The position numbers and the translations under genes were made by a program. DNA of 64,000 nt from assembly GCA_964648715.1 (NCBI GenBank), contig CAZYNM010000006.1:15355-79354 (forward strand), in the 5' to 3' direction. Positions 3,250-52,614 of the stretch are shown here, piece by piece. Source of the stretch: an uncultured Pseudomonadales bacterium. GTDB lineage: Bacteria > Patescibacteriota > Microgenomatia > UBA1400 > PJMF01. How positions within the stretch are numbered: the first letter of the stretch is position 1; each line of letters begins with the position of its first letter. Below the pieces are notes generated by a model. The model did not search any database. It was not told the DNA's origin and was given only the letters and a program-made list of their open reading frames with translations.

Positions 3250-3520
3250 CTACGAATTGTTTTAATACACTGGCAATAGTTGCCGCTCCGAAAACTAAAA
3301 GACCACCGATCAAAATATTAAAAATCCAACCTTTAAGTCTTGATTTTCTTTCAGTATCATCACCGCTAGCGATAAGAGCGATACCAAGAGCTGCGATTGA
3401 AAGAGCCATTACTGGAAGAGAAAAATATTGCAGGGTTTTAACGATACCCCATAGCAGAGAATCTAAATTTGCAAACTGAATTGGTTGTGCACTGTCATAC
3501 CCTGGTATCTGTGTGTCCAT
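3236..3520 (-). CDS. Small two-TM VirB2/TrbC-like T4SS pilin-type protein.
   Basis: 94 aa with two hydrophobic helices separated by a short charged loop (GDDTERKSRLKG). First gene of the T4SS operon. Confidence 0.45.
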   Translation of the reverse strand: MDTQIPGYDSAQPIQFANLDSLLWGIVKTLQYFSLPVMALSIAALGIALIASGDDTERKSRLKGWIFNILIGGLLVFGAATIASVLKQFVGGTN

Positions 3521-3679
3521 ATTTATCTTTATGTACTAGTGGGCAGAACTTATAATATTAACTCTCGAAATTTATAAGAATTCTAATGAAGAAAACCCGA
3601 AAAGTCAATAGCATGTAGGAGAAATAAGCCCATTTACGGTTAGAAAATAGGCTTTAAATCTATAAGTAAGATCAGCATC

Positions 3680-4060
3680 TTAGTCAACAATATGTTGTTT
3701 TACTTTTTCCAATAACTGGTCAGGCGTTATATCCACTTTCACTATATACGATGACGCGCCCAGTCGCATCATGTCTTTGATGGTATTATCATTTACTAAA
3801 TTTGTTAGAAGCACAATTGGTGTTTTATTGAGCAACTTATGATCTTTAGATAAAGTAGTCATAACTTCATGACCGTCCATTTCAGGCATCATAATATCAA
3901 GAAGAATAAGATCATAACGACCAGCTTCGATTTTTTGTAAAGCATCTTTGCCGTTTGTGGCACAATCTACAACATACCCAGCATCAAGGAGTGTGGATTG
4001 ATACACTTCTCTAATTTCTTTCTCATCCTCTACAAGCAACAATATTTTTTTATTTTCCAT
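3680..4060 (-). CDS. Stand-alone response-regulator receiver (CheY-like) domain protein.
   Basis: KILLLVEDE...DLILLDIMMPEMDG...PIVLLT receiver motifs with conserved Asp pocket. 126 aa, no output domain. Confidence 0.85.
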   Translation of the reverse strand: MENKKILLLVEDEKEIREVYQSTLLDAGYVVDCATNGKDALQKIEAGRYDLILLDIMMPEMDGHEVMTTLSKDHKLLNKTPIVLLTNLVNDNTIKDMMRLGASSYIVKVDITPDQLLEKVKQHIVD

Positions 4061-4093
4061 AGTAAATGTTAAAAAAATAATTAACTAATAATG

Positions 4094-6997: not shown

Positions 6998-7015
6998 TGT
7001 TGTATTAATATAAGG

Positions 7016-10000
7016 TTACTTTAAAATATCCAAAAATCCAAATATATCCGATAAATTACCAACAACCAAATCAAGTGCAGATTCAGTTGATTTTGGTGCA
7101 ATAGTAACGGTATCAATAGACTTACCTGAATTGCCTGCTTTGTCTTTTGAAAGAACTCGCAAGTGGTAGACCTTTGATGGTGTTAGGTCGGAAATTATAA
7201 CCAAATGATTCAAGGTCAAGTTGGTATCTTCTTGTGTTTTTTGAGGATAGTTTTCCCCCGTACCTTCGCCAAACTCAATCTGGGAACTGGCAGGCTCATC
7301 GGTATCCCAAGATACGATCAGTTGTGCACGGGCTTCTTGACCTGCACCAGATACAGGAGGGACTGTCGTTCCTTCAATCTTGAGATTAGATATCTGTGGA
7401 GGCCTGGTGTCTGTAGCCGTAGTAAATTTTTGGCTGTCTGATGAAGCTTCATTACCAATGGCATCTCGACCCTTAACAATCATCAAATAATCGGTTTCTG
7501 AACGTAGTCCTTTCACCAGTAATTTATGTTCACCTTTAACAAGCGCAATATTTACCTCATCACGGGCTGCACTCGTCTCACCTTGAGGATAATAGGTAAT
7601 GATAGAGGAAATCTCGGTATTAGACTGCCAAGTAACTAGTACGGTTGGTTGTGCAGTACCTCGGACTTCTTGGACACGAACATTAGAAATTTTTGGTCTT
7701 GGATAGGTTGTGAAATCAAGAATTGTACCTTCGTACTCTGAATTCTCACTATCGAAAGCATTAATTTTATAAAAATATTTAGTGCCGTCTTCAAGCCCTG
7801 TAAGCTCCATGGTATAGGTAGTTTCGCTGGTTGATGTAGCAATTTCTTTGACACCACCAAAACCGGTGGTTTTACCATAGTAAATCTTTACTTTGCTTGC
7901 ACCTTTGGAAGTGAGTTGAATGATTGCATTACTCAAACCAATATTTTTGGCAGCTACATCTTGCACCGTTGGGGAAGGACTTGTTTTGAATGTTTTTTCT
8001 TCACTTTGTCCCGTATTACCGTCTTCATCTGTCCACTTTGCACGATAATAATAGGTGGTACCCGGAGTAAGATTAGTTAAATTAATCGTATGATCCTTGG
8101 TTTGTGCTGAGTTTGATGGTTCTTCATCAAAATATGAACCAGATTTTGTACCATAGGCGATCTTGCTGTCAGAGTTCCTATCTGTCACCCAAGTGATTTT
8201 GGACTTTTTAGTAGTAATATCTGTTGCTGTTGGACCAGAAGATAATCCTGCGGCTTCAAAATACTTGCCTGTTGGCAAACCTGACACAGTGGATGACACG
8301 GCAGAACAGTTATTAGCACTATCACAAGCCTTTACACAATAATAATAATTCTGCTCGGAAAGACTCGTATCCGAATAGGATGTACCTGCAGTAGATCCTA
8401 TCTGTGTAAATGAAGAAGGCGAACCTGAACAACTTGCATTACTGGTTGATCTAAGTACTTTATAAGAACTAATACCAGCACCAATACTTTCTGGAGCATC
8501 CCATGAAATAGCCAGTTTCCAGTTTGAAGTCGCTTTGATTGAAATATCTGCCACATCTACATTGCGAGGAATACCAGGTGCAGAACCAGTATAGGCAAAA
8601 GTCACACTAGTATAAGTATCATAGTTTATATTTCCCGCTTCATCTTTTGCAACTAAATACAGGGTGTTTGTGCCGGGTTGAGTGGCAAACGCATCTTCTG
8701 CCAATGTATTGGCACCTGCTGCTGTATAGGTACAATTTGCAAGAGTAGGTACTGTGTTGATGGTATAACAGAAGCGTATGTTTCCTGCTTGGCCTGTAAA
8801 TGCTGAAGGATCATCCCAGCTAAAAGCATACGCATTGGTAGTACCATTCTCAGGCGTTACAACGAGATTGCGTGGTGCAGAAGGGGCAGTAGTATTGATT
8901 TTTAACGCATTTGAAACATAGGTATTTGATACATTGCCTGCAGCATCCCAGGTACGCAAATATACTAAGTTTGTACCCTCTGCGATGGCTGCATAGTCGG
9001 GTGTTTCCTGTGTAGCGTATGAACCATCATTCGTCAAAAGATCAGCTACGTCTTGTGTCCCTGTATGACTATCTCCGTACCAGGTACCACTTGTGCCGAT
9101 ACGATATTGCAAGCCTGCAACACCAGAATGGCTATCGCTTGGGCCATCACTGCCAGAGGATGGCCATAAAAAGGTCGTGCTTTCTGTAGCTATATAATCA
9201 CTTGGTACTGATAAAAAGGCAGGGTTAGCGGGGGCAGTATTATCAAATCTAAAATGGAAACTTGCGCTAGAACCTGCATATACATTTCCTGCACCATCTA
9301 TGGCTTTAACATTCAAATAATATGCATCATTGCTGGAAGTAAGCCACGGACTACCACGATATGAAAGTGTAGCAAAGTCTATAGAATTGGTACTTACAAT
9401 GAATTGACAGGTCGTACCAGTAGTTGAAACAGGAGAAGTGCCCAGTAGTCCCTTCGCAGTAGCAGGGTTCCCACTTTCGTCACTGCCCAAATACAAACAA
9501 TAACCAGAGATGCCAGAACCACCTACGTTATCCGCTCCTGCATCCCAAGAAAAATATGGTGCACTGCCATTTGTCCAACCATTGCTACTCATGCTTGCTC
9601 CACCTACTGTTTTTTTCATTATCACATTTGATGCATTGGTTGTTGGTGCAGTAGTATCAGTCGTGAGTCCAATTGCAATGCTCGTTATCGCAGGTAGATC
9701 CGTCCCACCAAATGCCATAATAGCCTTGACTGATATTTTTTGTGAGACGACTGGTAATGCCTGCATGGCTGTAGGAGTAAGCTCGGCTGCTGTGTTTACA
9801 TGCGTCGTGGTATTTGAGGCGGTTGCCCAAGCAGAGCCATCCCAATATTTCCATGCATTGCCACTTTGACAAGTTGCTCCATCATCTGTACAAATTTGAT
9901 ATTTCACCGAAGCATTCCCGCTGGCTGTGACATTGGCGGTAAAAGAATCCCAACTATTGACCTGACTATTACTATAGGCAGAAGTAGTATAGACGCTATA

Positions 10001-11608
10001 TGTACCAGCTTTTGAAAGGGTGAAATCATCAAGTTTGACGGTTTTACCTTGCTTGACCAATACACCATAGTCTCGTGATTCATTGGCTCCAGTAACGGTT
10101 CCTGATAGTTTCCACCAGCCAGAACCTATATTGGTGTATGTAGTAGAAACAACAGCCCCATTATAATACAACTGAGCAATAGAAGTGCTGACGGTACCGC
10201 CTTCGTTACCTGCTGTTGTGTCATACACAAAAACGGAAAAATCGAGCGAGTCGGCTGCGCCGACATTTATAGATTGTGTTACCTTAGCATCAGCTAAGCT
10301 ACCTACAGCTATGGTATTACCACCACCGTTTCTGCCAGATGAAGATGAGTAAGATTGAGAGATAGCTACGGAATCACTGGCGCACCTAAAACCGAAGTAA
10401 CTGCTCCGAGTTGCAGGTGTATAATTCAAAAAGAGTGAGAATGCTCCTGTATTTGAGGTATTACCCCAATCGCCACCGCGCAGGAAACCGTATAAAGTAG
10501 AAGCAGCAGAGCCGCTATTATGATAAATACGTCCCACACCATGGGTTGCATTATAGGTATTATTAGCAGGTCGGACTAAGTCATAAGAAAGGCTTCCATA
10601 GCTCGTTAAAGCTGTAAATTCCCGCCAGTTAAAACCACTCTGGCCACTCACATCAGGCTGATTAGCTTCCGTGATGGTGTCGCTGTTCCATTCCCAGACG
10701 TTTCCTGCTATATCCCAGATATATGCACCATTTGAGAGTGCTAGTACTCTTTTTTGATTACCAACACTTCCAGACGTATTGTTACTTGTATTTGTTGGAC
10801 AACCAGAAGGCGCCTCGGTACTGCCTCCTGAGTCGGTATAGGCACAAGCGTTGTTTCCTGTATCAGTAGAAGATGCCTGTAATGATTGTGCCGGTGAATT
10901 ATCGTTATGACCAGCAAACAAATAACCGCTTCCCACACTACCCCCTGTCCAGTTGCCTGTTTGTGCTTCTGCATTGCGTGCAATGGTCATCCATTCGGCA
11001 TTGGTGATAAGATGGTAGCCGCTACCAAGTGCAGAACAAGCCTCTATTGCATCAAAATCTGTATTGTTTTGTGAAATTCGCACCCATGGTCTTCCAGAAG
11101 GAATTGATCGTGCTTGATATCTAGTCTGTGAATTCGCGCCTGCCCAGCCATCGGCTGAGCCAGCACCTCCATCAGCCACTACACTATTGGTATTGGTATC
11201 CCATGCTTTTGCCTCGTACTTCATAACCAAGAAATTGGAAGTGCTGTAGGTGGCATTACCAGGAACCTCCACCCATCCTGTGGCAGGCACCGAAGAAACT
11301 GACCAGGAAGAATTGTCTGAGCTAAAAGATGGATTGGTAATTTTATTTGCTCCTGTGATTGGCCTTGCTCCAGAATTATCTACCGCAACAAGGGTATTGT
11401 CATAGGTATAACTACCAGCATTGGCAGTATTAAATGTCCAGGTTTTGGTAGTATCGTTGGCTGCAAAAATACTGGGTAAGTGAACAGTGGTAAGGTAGGT
11501 AGCACCTGCAAAACCGAAGATCATGAAAAGAATCGCAGCCAGATTAAACTGGAAACGCGAGTAATGATAGCGCTTTTCAAAAAAATATCTATATATGGTT
11601 TTATACAT
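7016..11608 (-). CDS. 1530-aa cell-surface protein: N-terminal signal anchor, FGE-sulfatase/C-type-lectin-fold domain (aa ~150-412) carrying the DGR variable repeat, then ~1100 aa of fibronectin-III/Ig-like repeats. This is the DGR target protein.
   Basis: Motifs IWDIAGNVWEWNSD and LRGGDWGN...GFRCAS typical of the FGE-sulfatase fold. Repetitive T/S/G-rich Fn3-like modules. VR at 10377-10488 lies in this ORF. Confidence 0.8.
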   Translation of the reverse strand: MYKTIYRYFFEKRYHYSRFQFNLAAILFMIFGFAGATYLTTVHLPSIFAANDTTKTWTFNTANAGSYTYDNTLVAVDNSGARPITGANKITNPSFSSDNSSWSVSSVPATGWVEVPGNATYSTSNFLVMKYEAKAWDTNTNSVVADGGAGSADGWAGANSQTRYQARSIPSGRPWVRISQNNTDFDAIEACSALGSGYHLITNAEWMTIARNAEAQTGNWTGGSVGSGYLFAGHNDNSPAQSLQASSTDTGNNACAYTDSGGSTEAPSGCPTNTSNNTSGSVGNQKRVLALSNGAYIWDIAGNVWEWNSDTITEANQPDVSGQSGFNWREFTALTSYGSLSYDLVRPANNTYNATHGVGRIYHNSGSAASTLYGFLRGGDWGNTSNTGAFSLFLNYTPATRSSYFGFRCASDSVAISQSYSSSSGRNGGGNTIAVGSLADAKVTQSINVGAADSLDFSVFVYDTTAGNEGGTVSTSIAQLYYNGAVVSTTYTNIGSGWWKLSGTVTGANESRDYGVLVKQGKTVKLDDFTLSKAGTYSVYTTSAYSNSQVNSWDSFTANVTASGNASVKYQICTDDGATCQSGNAWKYWDGSAWATASNTTTHVNTAAELTPTAMQALPVVSQKISVKAIMAFGGTDLPAITSIAIGLTTDTTAPTTNASNVIMKKTVGGASMSSNGWTNGSAPYFSWDAGADNVGGSGISGYCLYLGSDESGNPATAKGLLGTSPVSTTGTTCQFIVSTNSIDFATLSYRGSPWLTSSNDAYYLNVKAIDGAGNVYAGSSASFHFRFDNTAPANPAFLSVPSDYIATESTTFLWPSSGSDGPSDSHSGVAGLQYRIGTSGTWYGDSHTGTQDVADLLTNDGSYATQETPDYAAIAEGTNLVYLRTWDAAGNVSNTYVSNALKINTTAPSAPRNLVVTPENGTTNAYAFSWDDPSAFTGQAGNIRFCYTINTVPTLANCTYTAAGANTLAEDAFATQPGTNTLYLVAKDEAGNINYDTYTSVTFAYTGSAPGIPRNVDVADISIKATSNWKLAISWDAPESIGAGISSYKVLRSTSNASCSGSPSSFTQIGSTAGTSYSDTSLSEQNYYYCVKACDSANNCSAVSSTVSGLPTGKYFEAAGLSSGPTATDITTKKSKITWVTDRNSDSKIAYGTKSGSYFDEEPSNSAQTKDHTINLTNLTPGTTYYYRAKWTDEDGNTGQSEEKTFKTSPSPTVQDVAAKNIGLSNAIIQLTSKGASKVKIYYGKTTGFGGVKEIATSTSETTYTMELTGLEDGTKYFYKINAFDSENSEYEGTILDFTTYPRPKISNVRVQEVRGTAQPTVLVTWQSNTEISSIITYYPQGETSAARDEVNIALVKGEHKLLVKGLRSETDYLMIVKGRDAIGNEASSDSQKFTTATDTRPPQISNLKIEGTTVPPVSGAGQEARAQLIVSWDTDEPASSQIEFGEGTGENYPQKTQEDTNLTLNHLVIISDLTPSKVYHLRVLSKDKAGNSGKSIDTVTIAPKSTESALDLVVGNLSDIFGFLDILK
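10377..10488 (-). repeat. DGR variable repeat (VR), encoding aa ~374-411 (GFLRGGDWGNTSNTGAFSLFLNYTPATRSSYFGFRCAS) of the target protein.
   Basis: 112-bp match to 13692-13803 with 14 mismatches, every one at a TR adenine on the coding (minus) strand. TR AAC/AAT codons correspond to S/S/Y and other residues in the VR. Confidence 0.8.
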
Positions 11609-11775
11609 GACAGGTTTTCATAAATCCAATACACCAGCCCATTGGCTAGTCTACATATCCATAATACAGGAATCGTTCCTTACATTTCAACTGATAAAGT
11701 ATGTCAAATTTCGTATTCTAGAATTCGTATTCTAGAATGGAGTTTTATATTACATTTTGTTATACTAAACTTATT

Positions 11776-12069
11776 ATGAACATCAAAAGTATCCAAAATT
11801 TAGCTCTCCCCATACTAAGAAAATACAATGTAACTAAAGCAGCACTCTTTGGTTCTGCTGTCCGTGGAGAAATGAATGATCATAGTGACATTGACTTGTT
11901 AGTTGAATTGCCAACAGATGTTCATGGATTTGAGTATGTGGACTTAAAAGTTGGCTTACAAGAAGATTTAGAATCAACATTTGGGAAAAATGTGGATCTA
12001 GTCGAGTATAAACTTATTAAAGAATCACTTAAAAGCTATATTTTACCTGAACAGGTTAGAATTTTATAA
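11776..12069 (+). CDS. mnt: MNT-type nucleotidyltransferase antitoxin (minimal nucleotidyltransferase).
   Basis: LFGSAVRGEMNDHSDIDLLVEL nucleotidyltransferase motif. Directly followed by the HepT gene with a 1-nt gap. Likely start is MNIKS at 11776, not the upstream ATG at 11737. Confidence 0.75.
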   Translation: MNIKSIQNLALPILRKYNVTKAALFGSAVRGEMNDHSDIDLLVELPTDVHGFEYVDLKVGLQEDLESTFGKNVDLVEYKLIKESLKSYILPEQVRIL

Positions 12070-12417
12070 ATGGAAAAGAACCCTTTAATTTATTTAGATG
12101 ATATATTATTCTCTATTACCTTAATAGAAGGATATATCACTGATGTGGCACAAGAAGAATTCCTTGGCAGCTACGATATTCAAGATAAGGTCTTGAGAAG
12201 ACTAGAGATAATTGCAGAAGCGGCTAAGAAGCTTCCCATAGAAATAAGAAGCAATAATCCTCAAGTTCCATGGAAAAGTATAATCGGATTACGAAATATC
12301 ATAGCTCATACCTATGATGAAGTAAATTTAGAAGAGGTTTGGAGTATAGTAACATTGCACCTACCTAGAACTAAGATCGAGCTAGAAAAAATTAAGTCAG
12401 ATACATCAAAAAGGTAG
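12070..12417 (+). CDS. hepT: HepT/DUF86 HEPN-family RNase toxin.
   Basis: GLRNIIAHTYDEV matches the HEPN Rx4HxY motif. 115 aa. Paired with the MNT gene upstream. Confidence 0.75.
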   Translation: MEKNPLIYLDDILFSITLIEGYITDVAQEEFLGSYDIQDKVLRRLEIIAEAAKKLPIEIRSNNPQVPWKSIIGLRNIIAHTYDEVNLEEVWSIVTLHLPRTKIELEKIKSDTSKR

Positions 12418-13563
12418 TCTTAACTGCTCACATTTGATATCTTTTCTACGGATATTATCCAGCATTCGTTCACGCTTTTGCGAAAACAAAAAGCTTTGCA
12501 AATGATAAGCGTTGGCATGCTGAATGTGCCCCACGAATGAGTTGCAGGTCAACTGTAGTTTTTCTTTGGTAAACCTATCTTCACGTACCATGCGCTTTCT
12601 TTTTTCCATCCGCTTCTGAAATCTACGAAGCGTCTTACCTCGTATAAGGATATGATCATAAAAAATTCGATATCCCACAAATGGGACACCAAAGGATACA
12701 TTTTGAATAAAAACTTTTTCAGGGTGCAGTGTGAGCTTTAGGTTGTCTTCTAAAAATTGACCGAGGGTGTTTCTTACTTTAATCAAATGCTCTTTGTCAG
12801 GATGAATAATCAGAAAATCATCCATGTATCTTGCGTACCACTTTTCTTTGAGAGTATGTTTTACATACTGATCAAGCTCATTTAAATAGACATTGGCAAA
12901 AAGTTGGCTCGTGAGATTACCTATTGGAATGCCCTTTCTCTCTTGCAGATTTACGACGTGCTCAGGTAAATTTTTGAGTTGCCCATTGTTTTTATACACT
13001 TTGTGATTAGTGACTATGGTTGTAATAAGTTTTAAAATTTCTGGGTCAGTAATTTTCTCTTGTAAAATTGTAATGAGTACATCCCAAGAGATACTTTGAA
13101 AATACTTTCTAATATCACACTTTAAATAGTAGATTGGAGTTTGAGCACCATTTTTGCAACGAGCTGCCATCAAAAATTTTTTGACCCGTTGCAAACCAAA
13201 ATGAGTGCCTTTCCCCTTACGACACGCATACGAGTCATAAATGAAGTCTTTATCAAGTCTCGGTTCAATCAAGTTAACAAGTGAGCGGTGAACAATCCTA
13301 TCTCTAAAATTAGGAGCAGCTATATGCCTCTTCTTGGGATCAGTTACAACAAAATACATATATGGCTTTGGTATATATTTTCCTGACCGGAGAAGATATT
13401 GAAGGAGGCATATATGATCTTCCAAGTTAAAATCATAGGAAAGGGCAACTGGCTTAGAACGCTTACCTAAACGCACTTTGTTGTACGCCTTAAATAAAGA
13501 AGCTAAATTTGAAAACTGTATAAAATCTTTCATAAACCTATTTACCCTGCCTTGATTACTCAA
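12406..13563 (-). CDS. Diversity-generating-retroelement reverse transcriptase.
   Basis: RT motifs present, including YMDD (RYMDDFLII) and the motif-4 signature IGNLTSQ (GxxxSQ) characteristic of DGR RTs. Size ~380 aa. Adjacent TR and Avd. Confidence 0.85.
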   Translation of the reverse strand: MSNQGRVNRFMKDFIQFSNLASLFKAYNKVRLGKRSKPVALSYDFNLEDHICLLQYLLRSGKYIPKPYMYFVVTDPKKRHIAAPNFRDRIVHRSLVNLIEPRLDKDFIYDSYACRKGKGTHFGLQRVKKFLMAARCKNGAQTPIYYLKCDIRKYFQSISWDVLITILQEKITDPEILKLITTIVTNHKVYKNNGQLKNLPEHVVNLQERKGIPIGNLTSQLFANVYLNELDQYVKHTLKEKWYARYMDDFLIIHPDKEHLIKVRNTLGQFLEDNLKLTLHPEKVFIQNVSFGVPFVGYRIFYDHILIRGKTLRRFQKRMEKRKRMVREDRFTKEKLQLTCNSFVGHIQHANAYHLQSFLFSQKRERMLDNIRRKDIKCEQLRLPF

Positions 13564-13691
13564 GGCAGGAATACAGGTGTTTTGTTTGCCCGTCTGAAAA
13601 AAATAAAACGGGCAGGAAATGAATATTGTGATCTATGAATCCGGAATGCATGTCCGTAAACATGCACTGCTCATTCTGGCGTCATTGATCG

Positions 13692-13803
13692 CTGGCGCAC
13701 CTAAAACCGATGTTATTGTTCCGATTTGTAGGTGTATTATTCAAATTGAGTGTGAATGCTCCTGTATTTGATGTATTATTCCAATTGCCACCGCGCAGGA
13801 AAC
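13692..13803 (-). repeat. DGR template repeat (TR), located between avd and the RT gene.
   Basis: Cognate of the VR at 10377-10488. Adenine-rich on the coding strand with AAC/AAT codons. All mismatches to the VR fall at its adenines. Confidence 0.8.
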
Positions 13804-13846
13804 AGACAACCGTTCTATTCACTCCCCATATACACAGGCTATCATA

Positions 13847-14188
13847 TTACATAGCCTTCATCCAAGCTGTAAGCATTCGGCCGATTTCATTTACCTTTTC
13901 CGCAGCAAATGTGTATTGCTTGATGCTCATCAGTTTTACATCCTTAGTCAACCGTATAAGAATTCGCAAGGTATCAAGATCACGAGAAACTTTTAGTTGT
14001 AATTGTCTTCTAATTTGTAGATCTCGCTCTGTGTTTGCATGAATAATACCGATTAAAACCTGTAATGCTGTGGAGTGGATATGATGACCTAAAATTGGTC
14101 GATGATTGCGTGGGAGTCTGTTTAAGAGATGATAAAGCCAGACCACTAAATCATATGTCTTTTGAAAAATAAGTAGTTTTTCCTCCAT
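13847..14188 (-). CDS. avd: Avd-like accessory variability determinant (four-helix-bundle, 23S rRNA-IVS-protein family).
   Basis: 113 aa, basic, helical, with sequence KTYDLVVWLYHLLNRLPRNHRPILGHHIHSTALQVLIGIIHAN resembling the Avd family. Sits immediately 5' of TR-RT in the canonical avd-TR-RT order. Confidence 0.65.
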   Translation of the reverse strand: MEEKLLIFQKTYDLVVWLYHLLNRLPRNHRPILGHHIHSTALQVLIGIIHANTERDLQIRRQLQLKVSRDLDTLRILIRLTKDVKLMSIKQYTFAAEKVNEIGRMLTAWMKAM

Positions 14189-14450: not shown

Positions 14451-15233
14451 ATGAAGTTATCAGACAACGCACGAGCAAGTCTTGATCGAGTGATTGAAAG
14501 GTTCAAAAGCGGAGACCTTTCACCCATTACAAATATAGCTAGATTTGAGATCCCTGAGGATGCGCCATGTTTTAAATGGTCATTTTCAAATAAAGTACTG
14601 GCATATATCCAATCTGGTGAGCTTGATTGTAGAGGTTTTAATCAGTGGCAAGATGCAGGCCGAAAGGTCAAGAAAGGTAGTAAAGCCGTCTTTATCTTAA
14701 GACCGCGCACAATGAAGTTTGAAAAAGAAGGAGAAGAGCCACAAGTCATCTGTGTGGGTTTTGCACCAATACCAGTATTTGCAGCATCAGGTACAGAAGG
14801 TGAAGGCACTCTGGCAGTGTACCAGCCTAGAGAACTGCCCCCACTGTATGACGTTGCCCAGAGGTTAGGGGTAGAAGTGCGATATATGCCAGTATCCCCC
14901 GATAAGCTAGGAAGCTGTAAGCCAGACGGCACGCGTATTACTATCGGTACAGAAGCCCCAGAAGTGTTTTTTCATGAGCTAGCGCACGCCATACACGCCA
15001 AAATTGAAGGCACGTTAAAATCTGGTCAAGATACTACACAAGAAACCATAGCCGAGTTTACATCTTCCGTGCTAATGGATTTATACGGACTCAAGGACAC
15101 CAGCGGCAACACTTGGCAATATATCAAGATGTACGCAAGTGACCCACTTGAGGCAATAACCAAAGCAATGGCAACAGTCGAAAAAGTATTACAAGTTTTA
15201 CTTGCCCAAGAGAATACAGAGGCTACAGTATAA
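14451..15233 (+). CDS. ardC: ArdC-like antirestriction / zincin protein: N-terminal ssDNA-binding ArdC-N domain plus HExxH metallopeptidase domain.
   Basis: FNQWQDAGRKVKKGSKAVFIL matches the ArdC-N core motif. HELAHAIH is the zinc-binding HExxH motif. Typical conjugative-element gene. Confidence 0.65.
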   Translation: MKLSDNARASLDRVIERFKSGDLSPITNIARFEIPEDAPCFKWSFSNKVLAYIQSGELDCRGFNQWQDAGRKVKKGSKAVFILRPRTMKFEKEGEEPQVICVGFAPIPVFAASGTEGEGTLAVYQPRELPPLYDVAQRLGVEVRYMPVSPDKLGSCKPDGTRITIGTEAPEVFFHELAHAIHAKIEGTLKSGQDTTQETIAEFTSSVLMDLYGLKDTSGNTWQYIKMYASDPLEAITKAMATVEKVLQVLLAQENTEATV

Positions 15234-15420
15234 TAGTTACAGGAGATAAAAATATGTTAAATCCACGAATCACACACCCATTTGAAAATAAAATTCTTGA
15301 GCTGATTGATAATCAGGAAGACTACACCAGAAGTGACTTACAAGGAATAGTAACCGTACTTGTTAATGAGATTATGGAAAAGGGGCACGAAGTATTAAAA
15401 GACAAAGAATAGAGGTTTTT

Positions 15421-16173
15421 TTATTTTTTTGCCAAGTACCCTGCATCTACAATTAAATTGTGCCCTGTTACCATTTTGGATTGGTTCGAGCTTAAAAATA
15501 TAACAGCATTCGCTATATCGTCGGGTTCGACAATAGACTCAAGCAATGTGCCATTAATATTTTCTTCAAGTTCTTCTTGTGGTGCTGTAGCCCAGTATCC
15601 AGCTCTAACTGCACCAGGTGATACTGAATTTGCTCGCCCCCAAGGAGCCATTAATTTGGCATAAGCCTGAGTTGAATTTATTATTGCTGCTTTTGATGCA
15701 GCATAAGTTAACGCATCATGTTGTCCACTTAGTCCATGCCTAGATGCAATATTAACAATTACACCAGTGTTCCTTGACTGCATATGCGAAATGGCATACT
15801 TGCATACAGACATAGCAGAGATCAAATTTTGTTGCAGGCTTTTCATCCACAGATCCACTTCACCATCCCACACATCTCCATCCATGTACCTGCCAGCGTT
15901 GTTAACTACAATATCAATGTGTTCAAACTCTGAGGTAGTGAAATCAATGAGCCTTTTTGCTTCTTCATCCTTGGTTAAATCTACTTGAAATACTTTAATA
16001 TCTGACCCTGCTTGCCCCAGCTCAGTAACTACAGATTGAGCACCTTCCTGATTTGTTTTATATGAAAAACAAACCTTTGCGCCTTCATGGGCAAAAGCAG
16101 CAACAGTTGCTTTACCGATACCACTTGAGCCACCTGTTACAAGTACAACTTTATCTTTTAATCCTGTTTGCAT
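15421..16173 (-). CDS. Short-chain dehydrogenase/reductase (SDR) family oxidoreductase.
   Basis: VVLVTGGSSGIGKA Rossmann motif, NNAG motif, catalytic YxxxK (YAASK). Confidence 0.85.
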   Translation of the reverse strand: MQTGLKDKVVLVTGGSSGIGKATVAAFAHEGAKVCFSYKTNQEGAQSVVTELGQAGSDIKVFQVDLTKDEEAKRLIDFTTSEFEHIDIVVNNAGRYMDGDVWDGEVDLWMKSLQQNLISAMSVCKYAISHMQSRNTGVIVNIASRHGLSGQHDALTYAASKAAIINSTQAYAKLMAPWGRANSVSPGAVRAGYWATAPQEELEENINGTLLESIVEPDDIANAVIFLSSNQSKMVTGHNLIVDAGYLAKK

Positions 16174-16194
16174 ATGTCCATTCTATCAAAAATA

Positions 16195-17088
16195 TTACTT
16201 CGCGGTTATTAGAGTTAAACCAAGTACACCTATAAATGCCAATACTATCCCAACATATTTTCGTACTGATATTTTTTCTTTTAAAATTATACGAGAAAGA
16301 ATAACAGTGAGTGCTCCATTTGTTCCTGTTATTGGTGAAGCAATTGTTGCTGGGGCAAATGAGAAGCTCAACCATAAGAAACCTGTACCCATAATATTGA
16401 ATAGACCTCCAAGTAAAGCATGTCTGTAGTCTTTGAAATTTTTTACAACACCCTTTAATGCTTTTCCTATAGACTCTCTTTCAATTTTTAGATAGGTAAT
16501 GGCTACTGGTATTTGAATTATCCCGAGAGAGAATAGAAAACTAAAATCACCAGATCTATTTATATATCCTTTTGATACTGCGTCAGATAGACCAATTGCA
16601 ACAGCTGCAATAAAAGGCCAAAGGATTCCTTTAGTAACTTTCAACTCCTCGCTAGATATTTTGTCTGGAAGGCTAGCAATAATGCTACCTAAGATAGCAA
16701 AAGCTATAAACGAAAGACTTGTAGTGGTGACAATCTCACCATTAAATAGTAGAGAAAAAATAATGGTATATACAGGATATGTTGCTAGTACCGTAGTTGT
16801 TACAGCTAGCTCACCGTGAGAAAGTGCATAGAAGACTATTGCTTCAGATAAAATTGCAGAAATAAGAGCAAATAGCATTGCTTCTGACCAGCTTACTGTT
16901 TGAGAAATTCCCATAAAAAAAGCTAAGGGCAGCCAAATAACCAAGCCAAATAGCGCATCAAACAAAAATGCAACTGAAGGTTGCATATCTTTGTAACTTT
17001 TGCGTAATGAAAGTTGTGAGAAAGCAATCAGAACGCTACACAATATTGCAAAAATTATTCCCAACATAGATATATTATATTTGAACAA
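16195..17088 (-). CDS. EamA/DMT-superfamily transporter.
   Basis: ~10 TM helices in two repeated halves. 297 aa. Confidence 0.7.
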   Translation of the reverse strand: MFKYNISMLGIIFAILCSVLIAFSQLSLRKSYKDMQPSVAFLFDALFGLVIWLPLAFFMGISQTVSWSEAMLFALISAILSEAIVFYALSHGELAVTTTVLATYPVYTIIFSLLFNGEIVTTTSLSFIAFAILGSIIASLPDKISSEELKVTKGILWPFIAAVAIGLSDAVSKGYINRSGDFSFLFSLGIIQIPVAITYLKIERESIGKALKGVVKNFKDYRHALLGGLFNIMGTGFLWLSFSFAPATIASPITGTNGALTVILSRIILKEKISVRKYVGIVLAFIGVLGLTLITAK

Positions 17089-17096
17089 GGTATAAA

Positions 17097-17789
17097 TTAA
17101 TACCTTGGTATAGCCCTAACCACAAATTTAAGTTCGAGATCCTCTAAATCTAACAACTTCATTGCATACTTTTCTATATATTTTCGGAGCTTTTCAGTCT
17201 GGCAGTAAAAAATAATTGTTACAGTATCTTGATCTTTAAAAAATTCAAAGAACTTTTCTACCCTGGAGCGAATTGCAAACCTTGGCATACCATCTTTAAT
17301 AATTTCACAGCTGCACTGCTCAATCTGTCCGTTTTCTTCTCTGATGTATGCAAAGCTCGGTAATAAATCCCGAATGACCCCATTAACAGGGAAGTTGGTT
17401 TGAGTGTAGAATTTAAAGCCAGGCAGGTTTTGGCTTTCAAGATTTAAGTAAATATTTGCAATAGCGATACACTGATCAATAAATTGTTCTGATCTTCGAG
17501 TTTCTTGATACAGTTTTTTAATGTATTCAGATTCCAACCCCTCGGAGGATTTAAGAAACTTAATTCCATTTTTGGAGATAAAGTATATTGCTGGTTTGTT
17601 GATACCTGGTGTTTTCTCGAATATACGGACAATGTAATTTTTAGTAGTGAGGTCTTTAAGCCAGACATTAGTATTTTTAGGGTTTTTGTGTTTCAGGAGA
17701 GATTGTATCTGGATACGGTTTAGGAATCTGAATCTATAGAGAAGGAGAAGTATTTCTTTTTGTTTAGTAGTTATAGTAGGTAGTAGCAT
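17097..17789 (-). CDS. Replication-relaxation-family-like wHTH protein (plasmid/ICE maintenance).
   Basis: N-terminal LT.KQKEILLLLYRFRFLNRIQIQSLL pattern resembling the replication-relaxation family. Sits in the mobile-element context. Confidence 0.35.
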   Translation of the reverse strand: MLLPTITTKQKEILLLLYRFRFLNRIQIQSLLKHKNPKNTNVWLKDLTTKNYIVRIFEKTPGINKPAIYFISKNGIKFLKSSEGLESEYIKKLYQETRRSEQFIDQCIAIANIYLNLESQNLPGFKFYTQTNFPVNGVIRDLLPSFAYIREENGQIEQCSCEIIKDGMPRFAIRSRVEKFFEFFKDQDTVTIIFYCQTEKLRKYIEKYAMKLLDLEDLELKFVVRAIPRY

Positions 17790-19113: not shown

Positions 19114-21702
19114 TTATCTTTCAACTTCAAAAATATTTTTAACCTTATCTTTTAAATGGATATTATCTCCTGAAATTGCTTGATCATTGTTTTTAAGAGC
19201 ATTTCCATATCTCTGACGTGAACAAGTAATTGTTGCATTTATGACATCAGCTGCTGGTTGTAGTTTAAAATTCTCAATCTCTCCACTAAACGTAGCCTGT
19301 GGCTGTAATGCATTGATCTTCATATAAAAATTATACGAAGGGATATTTGCCATCTGTCCTTTTTCTACTTCTGGAGCAAATACAGGCAGTAGCTTGGCTT
19401 CATCCTTTGGACTGGTGGTTCTAAAACAGATCAAAGTACCAGTATTACCGATGATTGTCTCAAGTAAGTCATTCTCTATCTGCACTGTATTTTGATGAGC
19501 CAATATCACACTCAATCTATACTTACGTGCTTCAGAAAGAATCTGTGCAAACGACATAGTAGCAAAGTTCTGAAACTCATCTATATATAAGTAAAAGTCA
19601 GCTCGCTTTTCTTCAAGTATATGTACTCTACGTAAAGCAGTAAGCTGAATTTTGGCAGTTAGAAGCCCTCCTAGGAAGTACGCTGTGTCTTCTCCTATCT
19701 TTCCTTTTGAGAGATTACAGATCAAGATTTTCTTTTCATTCATGATTGTTTCAAAATCAAGTTTGCTCTCAGTTTGATTGAGAATATTTCTAGTCATGCC
19801 TGTAGTAAGAAACCTGCCCAATTTATTGGTAATAGGTGATATCTGCTCTGCACGTTGAAATGAACCTTGCTTATCAAATTCATTCTTCCAGAAAGACTTC
19901 AAGATGTCGTCTTTTAGTAAGCTGGTTACTTTTTTGCGATAGTTGGTATTAGTCAGCAAGTCATAAATAGTAAATAGGGTGGGTTTTTCTTGCTCTAATG
20001 CCGTTAAGATCACGTTTCTCAAAATATGCTCCATTCTTGGTCCTGAATATCTTGGATCATAGAGTTTATGGAAAATTGAGATAAGCGTTGAAGTAATAAA
20101 ATCTTTCTCTCGCTGAAGTTCAACATCAGATAACCCTTTAGGAATCTCTAGTACGTTTAAGCCGATTGGGAACTCAATATCATACGGATTAAAGTAAACT
20201 ACATCTTTGACTCTCTCCTCTGGAATAACACCTAGTAAACGCTCTGCTAAATCGCCATGTGGATCAATAACAGCTAGTCCATTACCTTTTTGCATGTCTT
20301 GATGGATCATGTGCATGAGCAAGGTTGTTTTTCCCGTACCAGTTGCCCCAATGATATAGGCGTGTCTTCTTCGCTCCTCAAGGGTTAAGCCAATCTGTGT
20401 AGTAGTTTCTCCATAGGTATTGGTGGCAAAGGTAATATCTAGCTCAAGGTCATTTTTCTTGAGAGTAATAGGTGCAGGGAGCTTAGGACTTTTTACTTGT
20501 AGTAAGTCCTCTGTTTTAGTTGTTGCTGTATAAGGAAAATGGTACAAGGCAGAAAGCTCATCTACCGACAAGACCATATTATTAGTAAAAAATGGGAACC
20601 GAGTTTTAAATTGTGAGTAGTACAAGTTGTTCAGTGTTTTAGATCTAATAATCTTGGCTAAAGATCGTTTTATCTCAATACCTTGATGTGGTGTGTTAAA
20701 AGTATCGAATGAGGCAGTAATACCTTTGAGGCGTTCAACTGCTTTTTCTTGAGAATGTGTCTGGATATGAATTCTTGCTGTGGTTTCAAATAATGGCTGA
20801 GTGATCTTATTGGCTATACTATTATATAGTTCTGTTTTTGTTGCACCTAGGCCATTAGAAGTATACTTTGCCGTTGATCTGAATAACCAAACAGGAAAGG
20901 CTTCTTGAGTATTACTAACTAGCCATGAAATGACTGTCACAGGTGTTAAAGCAATGAATGCAACGGAACTTGCGAGTAAGTTCACTAGGTATCTACCACT
21001 GTGCGGTTCTATCAGGTCAGTAATGTCTTCATTATTGAGAAATTTTTTAGTGATCGCAGTAATAAAGCTGAGTGTCCCGGAGTGCGTGCTTTCATGAATT
21101 GATGAGCAAACGAACTGAAGGCTGATTACTTCATCAGCTTGTAGCTTGGTCATGTGGGCGGTGAGATATGCCAGTGGGTCATATTGATTTAAGGTTTCTT
21201 GTGAAGCAATCGGATATATAAACAACTTCTTTAACTGTAACTCTCGGATCAAGGAGTATAACTTGGGATTACTTTGTACATGGTCACTAACTTCTTTGAT
21301 CTCAATACCCGGTAAATATGCTAGTAAGGTCTTTCTAATGCTGGGGGTTTCTTCTAGTCCAACACGTAAGATAAATCGAATACCATCATTTTTATTTGAA
21401 ACCAGTTCATAACTAATACTCTTTGTTAAGCCAAGAAGTTTATCTCGCCAATGATGAGGCTTTTCAAGTGAGTGCAAGATCGTAAATAGTTGTGCTGTAG
21501 ATAGTGGTGATTTGAGTGTTCGAGCAGTTGGCTTGATTTCAAGGAATAAATACTTTCTGCTCAAGTATTTTTTAATACAGATGAGTTTGAGGGTGATCTT
21601 AGAGAGTAAATACCCCACCGCAATAGATAGCAAAATATAAATTGTTATTTCAGAGAATAAATAGGGCGGGAATATATTAGATATATCCACAGTATTTAGC
21701 AT
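19114..21702 (-). CDS. T4SS ATPase of the VirD4/TraG coupling-protein type (VirB4/VirD4 superfamily) with N-terminal membrane anchor.
   Basis: Two N-terminal TM helices. Walker A GATGTGKTT followed by VIDPHGDL (close to the coupling-protein DPKGE motif). Walker B YLYIDEFQNF. VILAHQNTVQ motif. Confidence 0.6.
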   Translation of the reverse strand: MLNTVDISNIFPPYLFSEITIYILLSIAVGYLLSKITLKLICIKKYLSRKYLFLEIKPTARTLKSPLSTAQLFTILHSLEKPHHWRDKLLGLTKSISYELVSNKNDGIRFILRVGLEETPSIRKTLLAYLPGIEIKEVSDHVQSNPKLYSLIRELQLKKLFIYPIASQETLNQYDPLAYLTAHMTKLQADEVISLQFVCSSIHESTHSGTLSFITAITKKFLNNEDITDLIEPHSGRYLVNLLASSVAFIALTPVTVISWLVSNTQEAFPVWLFRSTAKYTSNGLGATKTELYNSIANKITQPLFETTARIHIQTHSQEKAVERLKGITASFDTFNTPHQGIEIKRSLAKIIRSKTLNNLYYSQFKTRFPFFTNNMVLSVDELSALYHFPYTATTKTEDLLQVKSPKLPAPITLKKNDLELDITFATNTYGETTTQIGLTLEERRRHAYIIGATGTGKTTLLMHMIHQDMQKGNGLAVIDPHGDLAERLLGVIPEERVKDVVYFNPYDIEFPIGLNVLEIPKGLSDVELQREKDFITSTLISIFHKLYDPRYSGPRMEHILRNVILTALEQEKPTLFTIYDLLTNTNYRKKVTSLLKDDILKSFWKNEFDKQGSFQRAEQISPITNKLGRFLTTGMTRNILNQTESKLDFETIMNEKKILICNLSKGKIGEDTAYFLGGLLTAKIQLTALRRVHILEEKRADFYLYIDEFQNFATMSFAQILSEARKYRLSVILAHQNTVQIENDLLETIIGNTGTLICFRTTSPKDEAKLLPVFAPEVEKGQMANIPSYNFYMKINALQPQATFSGEIENFKLQPAADVINATITCSRQRYGNALKNNDQAISGDNIHLKDKVKNIFEVER

Positions 21703-21836: not shown

Positions 21837-22166
21837 ATGTTAAGCCAAGAATTGACACTTTTTGATATACCAGAAACTAAGCTCCAGACTAAGAGTACTA
21901 CTTCTACTGCTAAAAGACCTGAAATATCTCATAAGCAGTACGCTTCTCTCGACAATGCACTTTCTGCAATCTTCCCAACTACTGAGCAGGATAATATCAT
22001 TACAAAAACTCGTCGTCATTTAGGTGATATAGGCAAAGAAATGTCAGATACAGAGATAAAAAATTTAGCTAGTGAATTTCAGTTTTTGATTGATAGTTGG
22101 TTAGACATGTTTGAAAAAGATACTTTTCAAGGCAAAACATTAAAAGAGATTATGGGAGGCAAATAA
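21837..22166 (+). CDS. Small hypothetical protein translationally coupled to the serine recombinase. Possible recombination directionality factor/regulator.
   Basis: Stop at 22166 and recombinase start at 22168. No recognisable motifs. Confidence 0.4.
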   Translation: MLSQELTLFDIPETKLQTKSTTSTAKRPEISHKQYASLDNALSAIFPTTEQDNIITKTRRHLGDIGKEMSDTEIKNLASEFQFLIDSWLDMFEKDTFQGKTLKEIMGGK

Positions 22167-22167
22167 T

Positions 22168-23739
22168 ATGAGTACAAATAATAATGAATCAGTAAAAACA
22201 GCGGTTATATATTTAAGAGTTTCTACTGAAGAACAGGTGGATAATTTTTCATTGGATACTCAAGAAGATATTTGTCAAAAGGAAGCTATTAAGCGCGGGA
22301 TTGAAGTTATCAAAGTTTTCAGAGAGGAAGGTAGATCAGCCAAAACAATCACAGGTCGTCCAGTATTGATTGAGATGCTAGAGTACTGTAGAAAAAACAA
22401 GAAAAAGATTGATGCAGTCATAGCGTATCGAGTAGATCGTATCTCACGCCAGACACAAGATTATTTAGCTATCCGAAGAAAGCTTACAGAGTGCGGTATA
22501 ACTTTGATATCTGCTACTGAACCCACTGGTAATAGCCCTACAGAAAAACTTGTTGAAACGATTCTGGCAGGTTTTGCACAACTAGATAATGATGTCAGAA
22601 GTGAACGCACAAAGAATGGAATGAGAGCAAGATTCCTGGCTGGTCTTCCAAATGGAAAAGTGCCTCTTGGATATCTAACTATAGATGGCTGTGCAGTCAA
22701 AGACCCAGAAAAATGGGATCTTGTAAAAAAAGCATGGGATTTAATGGAGACAGGTACGAAAACACTGAATGAAATTGCAGTACTTATGAATGATTGGGGT
22801 TTAAGGAATGTAATTGGAGGCAAAGAATGTATTTTCAGAGCTCAGACTGCAAGTAGACTATTTAAAAATAAGTTTTACGCAGGTGTGTTGACTTCACCAC
22901 GTTACCCCGATGAGGCTAAAGGTCAACACTTACAAATGATCTCAGAGGCTCAATACTATAAGGTGCAAGCCGTTATTGCTGGTAGAAATAACAGTATTAA
23001 TATTCCTGTTGTTAGAAGGAATAGAAACAACTCTGATTTTCCATTAAGAAGAATTATTAAGTGTGGTGGTTGTGGTGCACCATTTACAGGTGCATGGAGT
23101 AAGGGCAAGCGTGCAAAGCATGCTTATTATTTCTGTAGAAGTAGGTGTGGTAAACCATCTGTCAGAGCGTATGATGTTGATTTTTCAGTGGTTGAATTAC
23201 TCAGGAGAGTAACACCCAAGCAAGAAACACTAAATGCATTTATTGCCTTACTAAGAGCCAACTATTATAAAAGAGTTGCCAGTCTACAAAAGAAAAAAGA
23301 ACATGCTGATGTTGAACTAAAGAGACTACAATCCCTTAGAAAAGGATTAGTCGAGAAAAATCTATTAGGTATATATAGTGATGAAATATTTAAAGAACAA
23401 AATAAGATAATTGAAGAGCAAATCATAACCCTTGAGATAACAAAGGACGATGCTTTGCTTTCCAAATACAATCTCGAAGCAATAATTGCTTTTATGAAGG
23501 ATAAATTTGCTGATTTAGGAAAAACGTATCAAGAATCAGATATTGAGCAGATAAAAGTATTGTTGTGTTCGATATTTGACTCAGAACTCACTTGGGACTA
23601 TTCTGGCATTTCGAACACCCAAATTAATGCGGTATATCAATACATTTATGACTTTGAAAGTGTTGATATCGCAAATGGTGACCCCATGGAGAATCGAACT
23701 CCAATTACAGGGATGAAAACCCTGCGTCCTAACCGTTAG
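22168..23739 (+). CDS. Large serine recombinase (integrase).
   Basis: N-terminal resolvase domain with catalytic Ser in AVIYLRVSTEEQ and the YRVDRISR motif. Recombinase domain. Zinc-ribbon cysteines CGGCG...CRSRCG. Coiled-coil C-terminus. 3' end overlaps tRNA-Glu. Confidence 0.85.
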   Translation: MSTNNNESVKTAVIYLRVSTEEQVDNFSLDTQEDICQKEAIKRGIEVIKVFREEGRSAKTITGRPVLIEMLEYCRKNKKKIDAVIAYRVDRISRQTQDYLAIRRKLTECGITLISATEPTGNSPTEKLVETILAGFAQLDNDVRSERTKNGMRARFLAGLPNGKVPLGYLTIDGCAVKDPEKWDLVKKAWDLMETGTKTLNEIAVLMNDWGLRNVIGGKECIFRAQTASRLFKNKFYAGVLTSPRYPDEAKGQHLQMISEAQYYKVQAVIAGRNNSINIPVVRRNRNNSDFPLRRIIKCGGCGAPFTGAWSKGKRAKHAYYFCRSRCGKPSVRAYDVDFSVVELLRRVTPKQETLNAFIALLRANYYKRVASLQKKKEHADVELKRLQSLRKGLVEKNLLGIYSDEIFKEQNKIIEEQIITLEITKDDALLSKYNLEAIIAFMKDKFADLGKTYQESDIEQIKVLLCSIFDSELTWDYSGISNTQINAVYQYIYDFESVDIANGDPMENRTPITGMKTLRPNR

Positions 23740-23750
23740 ACGATGGGGCC
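23676..23750 (-). tRNA. tRNA-Glu (anticodon UUC), with encoded CCA.
   Basis: Hand-folded cloverleaf: acceptor GGCCCCA/TGGGGTC, anticodon stem CAGGG/CCCTG with loop TTTTCAT, T-loop TTCGATT, discriminator A, then CCA. Confidence 0.8.
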
Positions 23751-23786
23751 ATCGTACGGACAGTTTTGTATTATACCTCAGAAATA

Positions 23787-24185
23787 CTACCACGTCACGT
23801 TGCGGTAATGTTCTATGCCGCCAGGTACTATAGCAATCACATCAAAGCGGTACGCTCCCTGCCACTTCTTGTGCCGCAAGTAACGCACTGCTACCCGCTG
23901 CATACGATAGATTTTGCTTTTTGTTACCGCTTGGCTTGGGTCGCCAAAGGCAGCTGTGCTGCGAGTTTTTACTTCTACGAAAACTAGTTCATGCTGCGTT
24001 ATATCAAACGCCACAATATCTATCTCACAGCCACCAAAAGATACATTGGTATCATGGATATGAAAGGTGTGTTCTAAGAGAAATGCCCGAGCACGTTCTT
24101 CGCCCCGTTGCCCCAAAGCAGTATTATGCTGCTGGAGCTGTTTTGGTGACAGTTGCCTTTTCTTTAACTCTGCTTGCGGCTTTAC
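23787..24185 (-). CDS. yraN: YraN-family (UPF0102) endonuclease-like protein. Start codon uncertain.
   Basis: GEERARAFL...DIVAFD...LVFVEVKTR...YRFDVIAIV motifs. The 5' extension of the ORF overlaps rplS, so the true start is probably internal, perhaps GTG near 24185. Confidence 0.6.
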
Positions 24186-51153: not shown

Positions 51154-51341
51154 AGCTTGTATTATACATCAGCGTTAAAAAACTCTCTCAAGAGAGCAAT
51201 GGCAGAGTCTGAATAGTCTGTGATGAGTGTGGTGAGTTCTTGTGCGCTGATGCCGTAGTCACCAAACCACTTGCGGTCTAGGGCGACGGCAGTGGGGATG
51301 ATGTGCGTGGTAAGTGGAGTCGGGTGGGGCATGAAACTAGA

Positions 51342-52595: not shown

Positions 52596-52614
52596 ACATA
52601 AAATTATTTTGAAA

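Follow-up and report, generated by a model that had tools for sequence, protein, structure and literature searches.

What does it mean that the reading frame of a recombinase gene runs antisense through most of a tRNA gene? The question is raised by a 64,000-nt stretch of contig CAZYNM010000006.1 (the window; all window coordinates refer to this whole stretch, and L-numbers denote compared loci), in which the open reading frame (ORF) of a large serine recombinase (LSR) enters the gene for tRNA-Glu(UUC). The sequence comparisons reported here indicate that the junction (Table 1) is most probably the attL of a conjugative element of about 27.8 kb, inserted by its own LSR at the extreme 3' end of the tRNA-Glu(UUC) gene.

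A preliminary description of this DNA had called the reading frame a serine recombinase and its neighbour a tRNA-Glu(UUC), and both calls stand. The ORF matches the Pfam resolvase (PF00239, residues 12-157, 1.6e-32), recombinase (PF07508, 2.5e-8) and zinc-ribbon (PF13408, 8.4e-9) domains, with all recognised catalytic and DNA-binding domains upstream of residue ~500, and its nucleophile motif RVS (R17, S19) is invariant across a 37-sequence alignment. The tRNA was found by ARAGORN as well as by the Rfam tRNA model. The ORF was said to run into the 3' half of the minus-strand tRNA; the overlap is there but is larger, 64 of the 75 tRNA nucleotides (from the 3' end to nt 12) being covered antisense. 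LSR residues 1 to ~503 are encoded by the element, while the final ~20 codons, ending in GDPMENRTPITGMKTLRPNR and the stop codon, are antisense host tRNA-Glu. The GC content rises at the tRNA as described, from 0.381 over 1-23675 to 0.449 over 23751-50000 (0.354 and 0.453 in the 1-kb windows to its left and right), but does not reach the 50% given. To the right of the tRNA the host core genes that had been named are present, encoding YraN/UPF0102, ribosomal protein L19 and CTP synthase, together with DnaE.

The arrangement is not peculiar to the window. At least 1260 homologues of the LSR were found at E ≤ 1e-20, and almost all of the top 120 (56-94% identical) have a C-terminal tail containing G.RT, which is the antisense T-loop. 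We compared 80 LSR loci from species-representative genomes, mostly metagenome-assembled genomes of Patescibacteria (candidate phyla radiation, CPR). In 67 of these an antisense tRNA, with its 3' end 1480-1510 nt past the LSR start, is entered by the LSR ORF. Because the same layout recurs so often, the overlap is not a chance event. At seven further loci the contig stops at the LSR 3' end, four times within the 3' part of a tRNA. The remaining six lack a called tRNA: the L070 contig ends within tRNA-Gly, L002 and L071 look attP-like, and the others are L004, L041 and L036. At L004 (~11510-11545) and L041 (~11495-11530) the LSR abuts a tRNA 3' fragment of only ~30 nt, the rest of the tRNA gene perhaps having been displaced by a later insertion. 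The family loci, with four fetched separately (L081, L092, L093 and L181), gave 72 mapped junctions covering 23 anticodons and 10 amino acids, Glu(ttc) being the commonest (17 junctions). Even LSRs that are ≥90% identical are found at tRNA-Glu or tRNA-Lys, and the antisense-tRNA tail of the integrated LSRs varies from 4 to 80 residues. Judging from where the LSR family occurs, the host of the window is probably a member of the Patescibacteria.

The preliminary description had placed an attachment junction at the tRNA-Glu 3' end, with the element at lower coordinates, and had suggested a comparison with related genomes carrying an empty site. Such sites exist, and they support the assignment as attL. 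A metagenome scan with the window PyrG returned 80 loci with PyrG identity of ≤77%. The order pyrG-rplS-yraN-tRNA-Glu(ttc) is kept in ~55 of them, with an LSR following the tRNA in one only (L101), and the genes downstream of the empty-site tRNA-Glu have no homologue in window 1-23600. Most empty-site tRNAs end in GGGGTCAC followed by A, often with a terminator hairpin after it. At the four occupied sites (window, L092, L093 and L101), GGGGTCAC is followed by CA and then by the antisense LSR 3' end.

The position of the crossover was bounded by comparing closely related elements at different tRNAs. The LSR of L092 is 94% identical to that of the window and adjoins a tRNA-Glu in a different host context. 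The two sequences share 96% nucleotide identity in the 100 nt before the tRNA and ~77% within it. A compensated change in the acceptor stem is among the differences, and the tRNA body is accordingly of host origin. L181 has an LSR of the same 90% cluster, in the same type of conjugative element, at tRNA-Lys(ttt). All three are near-identical up to GATATCGC(A/G)AATGGTGA and divergent after it; in terms of the tRNA strand, they have in common the element and TCACCA (nt 71-76). The end of this homology sets T71 as the left bound of the crossover, and the right bound is C74, since attL/attR identity stops after C74 in L064, L023 and L025. These alignments place the crossover within TCAC (nt 71-74), probably at A73-C74, which is the only non-palindromic dinucleotide common to the Glu, Pro and Leu cases. 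In a logo of the junctions a C occupies position 74 in 72/72 and the dyad centre falls on it, the P' arm TCAAA at +21 to +25 mirroring the P-arm GTTCGA at -26 to -21. By the same comparisons the host supplies tRNA nt 1 to ~74 and the element supplies C75-A76 and a new 3' trailer, leaving the tRNA intact. This contribution of C75-A76 would account for the enrichment of CCA ends among target tRNAs (43/71, against 28/93 for other tRNAs in the same loci).

The far boundary had been expected beyond position 1, marked by a 20-50-nt direct repeat of the tRNA 3' end. The location agrees with what was found, but the repeat does not. L174, a 16.5-kb contig from another sample, matches window 1-10394 at 98.2% identity and reaches 6.1 kb beyond position 1, and a far-end site lies in this extension. 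The contigs of P0001 and P0002 both break off within the element. The tRNA 3' 27-mer has no second copy in the window at ≤3 mismatches, matching only the tRNA itself, and blastn-short found no extended tRNA 3' copy in the L174 extension; attL and the far end have only 10-12 nt in common, GGGTCACCAT(TT). The expectation of a long repeat follows tyrosine-integrase logic, and the enzyme here is a serine recombinase. L174 repeats the 12-nt attL core exactly, and in the same direction, at 16239-16250 and has a shorter copy of 10 nt at 14521-14530. Across six elements the attL/attR identity is 12, 11, 10, 6, 5 and 5 nt. A search of 68 loci with the target tRNA against its own locus (blastn-short) likewise gave no upstream repeat of the tRNA 3' part within 10 kb, but only repeats of 5' segments that were attributed to unrelated small insertions.

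Each core copy in L174 closes a P arm. The inner copy (14484-14530), CAAGGCAAAAGGTGTTCGAAACAAAGTGCAAAAGGGTCACCAT, is attP-like, with the antisense remains of a decayed LSR C-terminus after it, and the outer copy (16201-16250) ends in GGGTCACCATTT and is followed by unrelated DNA. The L174 order can be read as a tandem array, in which the tRNA and the ~27.8 kb of the window's element would be followed by the P arm, core and P' arm of an older decayed element (1.7 kb, with an AAA_14/DUF4143 gene), and then by a P arm, core and flank. A complete tandem array, with two family LSR copies within 10 kb either side, was seen at no locus. Further P arms were recognised from core matches and tail homology in L003, L064 (twice), L023, L017, L025 and L179, giving nine sites in seven elements. 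In 9/9 of them GTTC(G/A)A(A/T) lies 15 nt from a 5-nt core (GTCAC, CCGAC or GGCAC), and this core is separated by 10 nt from the T-loop GTTCRAN (GTTCRAW) of the cognate tRNA. The L174 P arm (GTTCGA(A/T), 15 nt, GTCAC) thus mimics the tRNA 3' end, with its T-loop-like motif 5 bp further from the crossover. This +5-bp offset matches that known for serine integrases: in the LI integrase model of Rutherford et al. (2013, PMC3783163), the zinc-ribbon-domain (ZD) motif of attP is 5 bp more distant from the centre than that of attB. Both ends occur within one locus in five elements, with sizes of 5.9-11.3 kb, and a PLDc_2 gene adjoins the P arm in L174, L003 and L071.

The P arms also show what the LSR gene looks like before integration. 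Simulated excision, in which the LSR was joined to the P arm at the core, gave an uninterrupted in-frame ORF in 6/6 elements, with rejoined LSRs of 546-554 aa (522 aa in L064). The rejoined tail is homologous in all six, GDPxALxFE(P/H)FLPWIxx(I/L)MxAYP...YYxKK(I/V)N, and its conservation reaches well past the 26-bp half-site to the common C-terminus YYxKK(I/V)N. In the 13 tail codons just outside the P arm, nonsynonymous divergence (dN) was below synonymous divergence (dS) in 16/16 computable pairs (median dN 0.37, dS 1.12). A database search with a tail profile returned 47 clusters, all of them short orphan ORFs of 49-87 aa; several start with the LSR's own MFE-containing end, a sign of an attP-type junction within a tandem array. 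In L179 an intact 546-aa LSR reads through an attP-type junction into the end of a helix-turn-helix (HTH) gene, and the LSR of L071 reads through one into the PLD and type IV secretion system (T4SS) end of a conjugative element, both LSRs being full-length or nearly so. Such reading frames place attP within the LSR ORF, the gene being complete only across attP. On this evidence integration swaps a conserved 46-49-aa tail for antisense-tRNA codons and leaves the tail at attR as an orphan ORF of 49-87 aa.

A second conserved gene accompanies the LSR. A homologue of the 109-aa partner ORF (100-115 aa) is present in 80 of the ~81 LSR loci with enough upstream sequence, and in 78 it is directly upstream on the same strand. 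It has no Pfam or NCBIfam match. Twelve homologues were retrieved, its AlphaFold model is helical with a predicted local distance difference test (pLDDT) score of 66, and comparison of the model with the PDB gave no fold match with E < 8. We regard it as a candidate accessory or directionality factor.

These sites can be accommodated in a scheme in which the LSR would insert the element by attP x attB recombination at the tRNA-Glu 3' end. The zinc-ribbon domain would read the universally conserved sequence of the T-loop, which has the attB spacing in the tRNA and the attP spacing in the element, and the recombinase domain and central dinucleotide would use the acceptor end and A73-C74. Recognition of the T-loop and acceptor end would make one LSR clade able to use many tRNAs, and with tolerance in the acceptor stem, near-identical enzymes could act at tRNA-Glu as well as at tRNA-Lys. 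Relaxed needs at the distal half-site are suggested by the unconserved B' arm and by the tandem arrays, and would recall SCC elements. More speculatively, the tail swap might influence activity or directionality, or the 109-aa partner might control directionality. A broader proposal is put forward as tentative. In it a Patescibacteria-centred clade would use the T-loop/acceptor end as attB, with an attP mimic at +5 bp; the location of attP in the LSR's own gene, with the tail swap, would form a built-in switch of activity, stability or directionality; and the archaeal 'suicidal' integrases would possibly have in this clade their first counterpart among bacterial serine recombinases.

The enzyme qualifies as a bona fide LSR in its domains, in the geometry of its att sites and in their short core. 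The serine integrases of phiC31, Bxb1 and Listeria A118/LI have the same Resolvase, Recombinase and zinc-ribbon architecture, short att sites with little attP/attB identity (5-12 nt here) and an outer motif that is nearer the centre in attB (PMC3783163). Characterised members use protein-coding or intergenic targets, whereas here a whole clade is found at tRNA 3' ends, with the T-loop as outer motif, attP within the integrase ORF and no conserved motif in B'. The general view is that serine integrases avoid tRNA genes. The TIGER survey of Mageeney et al. (2020, PMC7192596) described t(m)RNA-gene use by a serine integrase as unreported and in need of proof, with only 14 of 297 candidates, and Durrant et al. 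(2022) make no mention of tRNA. In literature on serine recombinases and tRNA in CPR, or on attP within a serine integrase gene, we found no description of this LSR family, the coverage of subscription journals being incomplete.

The Ccr recombinases of SCCmec (CcrA, CcrB and CcrC) are LSRs that use the 3' end of rlmH/orfX as insertion site, leave this gene active and build tandem composite arrays. They resemble the present system in the use of a conserved host gene 3' end and in the arrays; they differ in that here the target is a tRNA, a single LSR with a 109-aa partner takes the place of the CcrA/CcrB pair, and the element is conjugative with a T4SS. CcrB was among the best NCBIfam matches of the LSR (1.3e-24), with 86.8 bits against a cut-off of 900. 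Identity as a Ccr or XisF equivalog was rejected, the NCBIfam scores being far below the cut-offs and the target being a tRNA, not rlmH. The tRNA/tmRNA islands of tyrosine integrases (Williams sublocation classes; Islander) share with our case the target class, the preserved tRNA and an integrase gene beside the tRNA-proximal junction. Here, in contrast, the enzyme family and chemistry are different, there is no long tRNA 3' repeat, the element gives C75-A76 only, and the crossover lies at the discriminator/C74 instead of the anticodon loop or T-loop. In the integration-dependent immunity of mycobacteriophages, attP lies in the repressor gene, recombination is by a tyrosine integrase, and the change of the C-terminus acts as a switch. 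As here, attP is in a coding sequence and integration alters a protein C-terminus, the protein being a repressor there and the LSR here. The SSV-type 'suicidal' tyrosine integrases of archaea also have the att site in the integrase's own gene, which is partitioned by integration (PMC8371274), but the enzyme here is a bacterial serine recombinase that loses only its 46-49-aa C-terminal tail and keeps all recognised domains. Self-disrupting integrases have been said to be exclusive to archaea (PMC8371274).

Could the junction be explained in another way? In a classical tRNA island the element's tRNA 3' half replaces that of the host, crossing over takes place in either the T-loop or the anticodon loop, and the far end bears a 20-50-nt direct repeat of the tRNA 3' segment. 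This is the usual route of tRNA-inserted islands (Williams 2002, as cited in PMC12884075), and it would agree with an intact tRNA mostly covered by the ORF and with T-loop-like and acceptor-like motifs in the P arm. However, Pfam scans of the element ORFs in the window and the L174 extension gave no tyrosine recombinase (Phage_integrase), and ≥90% identical LSRs abut tRNAs that differ from ~nt 70 inward, with compensatory stem changes or as different tRNA species. Together with attL/attR repeats of 5-12 nt, a 27-mer without a second copy, and a P-arm spacer 5 nt longer than a tRNA fragment would have, this makes a classical island very improbable. It is scarcely credible that the tRNA-Glu is element cargo or a coincidental neighbour, with the true boundary elsewhere and the overlap an ORF-calling read-through. 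ORF lists are mechanical, mobile elements sometimes carry tRNAs, and the tail codons within the tRNA are without a conserved function of their own; yet the same tRNA-Glu stands beside yraN in ~50 relatives without an LSR, the GC step falls at the tRNA, the layout recurs in 67 of the 80 loci, the 72 mapped junctions use 23 anticodons, and homology between related elements ends at tRNA nt 71. We also think it unlikely that the far-end sites are relics of older unrelated insertions, with the window's element ending elsewhere and the 12-nt match arising by chance. The 12-mer alone has a blastn-short E-value of 0.1 and L174 is from a different sample. Nevertheless, the match spans the junction in the correct orientation (estimated prior chance ~0.005-0.01) and comes after the conserved P-arm sequence and a tail ORF, both known at eight other sites; PLDc_2 stands beside the P arm in three independent elements; and in five elements both ends were seen in one locus.

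A further alternative concerns the tail alone, and is a possibility to be taken seriously even if we do not favour it. The tail would be conserved only as P-arm DNA site or as a separate small gene, integration would leave the LSR with its full function, and splitting the gene would regulate nothing. The position of the recognised LSR domains, all upstream of residue ~500, fits this, as do the variation in tail length (27-49 aa), the truncation of some tails (L064, L071, L179) and the coincidence of the first ~9 tail codons with the P-arm half-site. On the other side, conservation continues well past that half-site to YYxKK(I/V)N, dN is lower than dS in all 16 pairs over codons outside the P arm, and the frame is kept across the crossover in all six elements. 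Returning to the reading of the junction as the attL of an LSR-inserted element with a detachable tail, several observations weigh against it. The far end is known from a 98%-identical contig of another sample and not from the window's own 80.4-kb contig, and the 270 nt of L174 DNA past the outer P arm (GC 0.32) are not proven to be of host origin. Tandem arrays would have required attP to recombine with attL or attR, combinations that are avoided by canonical serine integrases, and the B' arms yielded no conserved motif, an unusual situation for the attB of a serine integrase. Conservation of the P' arm is confounded by the coding constraint on the LSR, and the dN/dS estimate for the tail comes from 13 codons only. 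The fetched loci contained no same-species empty site for the window, L003 or L064, the closest hosts having ≤77% PyrG identity. No circular or episomal form, and no read-level evidence of excision, was seen; the one close relative in IMG/VR is integrated.

If the attL reading is correct, GTTCGAAACAAAGTGCAAAAGGGTCACCAT and a second P arm, then host DNA, should be found ~4.1 and ~5.8 kb left of position 1. It would then be clear how the modular DNA-binding scheme of serine integrases can rest on a universal RNA-gene motif, which would explain why they are easily retargeted from one tRNA to another and why elements accrete at tRNA ends in small CPR genomes. The family would be a natural integrase set with an attB in every genome, of practical interest for genome engineering, and integration-dependent remodelling of an integrase C-terminus could be tested in it. 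The family might also represent a main entry route of conjugative elements, here one carrying a diversity-generating retroelement (DGR), into Patescibacteria chromosomes.

Table 1. Features of the junction and of the element in the window.
Feature	Position	Strand	Evidence or remark
LSR ORF, integrated form, 523 aa	22168-23739	+	Pfam Resolvase, Recombinase, Zn_ribbon_recom
tRNA-Glu(UUC), intact, probable integration target	23676-23750	-	ARAGORN tRNA-Glu(ttc); Rfam 60.2 bits at 23679-23750 (gathering score 29)
Probable attL	23652-23704	-	T-loop-anchored logo, 72 junctions
B arm of attL (tRNA acceptor 3' strand and T-arm)	23679-23704		T-loop GTTCGAT at 23693-23699
P' arm of attL (antisense LSR 3' end)	23652-23677		TCAAA at 23653-23657
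12-nt core GGGTCACCATTT (tRNA orientation)	23673-23684	-	Common to far-end site
Probable crossover dinucleotide A73-C74	23678-23679	-	Bounds nt 71-74 = window 23678-23681
109-aa partner ORF	21837-22166	+	Directly upstream of LSR
Window part of probable integrated conjugative element	1-23677		Continues past position 1; Pfam scans; GC 0.381 vs host 0.449
TraC-like	687-1496		Pfam scan
VirB6/TrbL	1474-3249		Pfam scan
VirB2 pilin (TrbC/VirB2)	3236-3520		Pfam scan
Response regulator	3680-4060		Pfam scan
MacB ABC	4094-6997		Pfam scan
DGR target	7016-11608		Pfam scan
MNT/HepT	11737-12417		Pfam scan
Reverse transcriptase (RT)	12406-13563	-	Pfam scan
Avd (bAvd)	13847-14188	-	Pfam scan
ArdC-like	14451-15233		Pfam scan
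SDR and EamA cargo	15421-17088		Pfam scan
Replic_Relax	17097-17789		Pfam scan, 1.4e-7
VirD4-like coupling protein	19114-21702		Pfam scan

The gene content of the element includes the T4SS set of an integrative conjugative element, with VirD4-like, VirB2 and VirB6 proteins in the window and VirB4 known through L174. The VirB4 gene (TraG P-loop/AAA_10, 702 aa) is located in the L174 extension before the P arm, together with genes for an M23 peptidase, an HTH protein and PLDc_2. Pfam scans of the element ORFs gave the Replic_Relax-domain protein as the only relaxase candidate, and no canonical MOB relaxase or origin of transfer (oriT) was identified.

Some minor features of the LSR loci were also recorded. 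At L027 (9177-11576) a minimal element of ~2.2 kb, consisting of an XRE-type HTH gene, a 115-aa partner and the LSR, apparently occupies the space between a tRNA-Asn gene and a tRNA-Leu(gag) gene that converge on it. The distal part of the related conjugative element in L071 encodes a SMODS nucleotidyltransferase and SLATT effector pair (9077-10535) resembling a cyclic oligonucleotide-based antiphage signalling system (CBASS). On the 5' side of some target tRNAs, the first 16-22 nt of the tRNA, in some cases with flank, are repeated 50-330 nt further out (L010 11585-11921, L017 11592-11715, L024 11607-11776, L032 11565-11656 and L075 3352-3685), a pattern that points to small insertions at the 5' ends of tRNA genes; in L010 the insert is 320 nt long and codes for a GIY-YIG protein (Pfam 1.6e-14).

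Within the window, the conjugative element carries the DGR at 7016-14188. Its template repeat (13688-13803) and variable repeat (10373-10488) differ at A, on the coding strand, in 14 of 15 differences, and the variable repeat falls in a 1530-aa FGE-sulfatase/fn3 surface-protein gene. Between this target gene and the RT gene lies the MNT nucleotidyltransferase/HepT toxin-antitoxin pair. The cargo block of an SDR dehydrogenase and an EamA transporter, 15403-17178 in all, is missing in the otherwise 90-96% identical element of L001. Elsewhere in the window, 50001-53000 forms a second low-GC patch (0.368, against 0.45-0.47 around it) with an ABC exporter (49237-51168) and a 425-aa ORF without a Pfam family (51345-52619), and may be another island.

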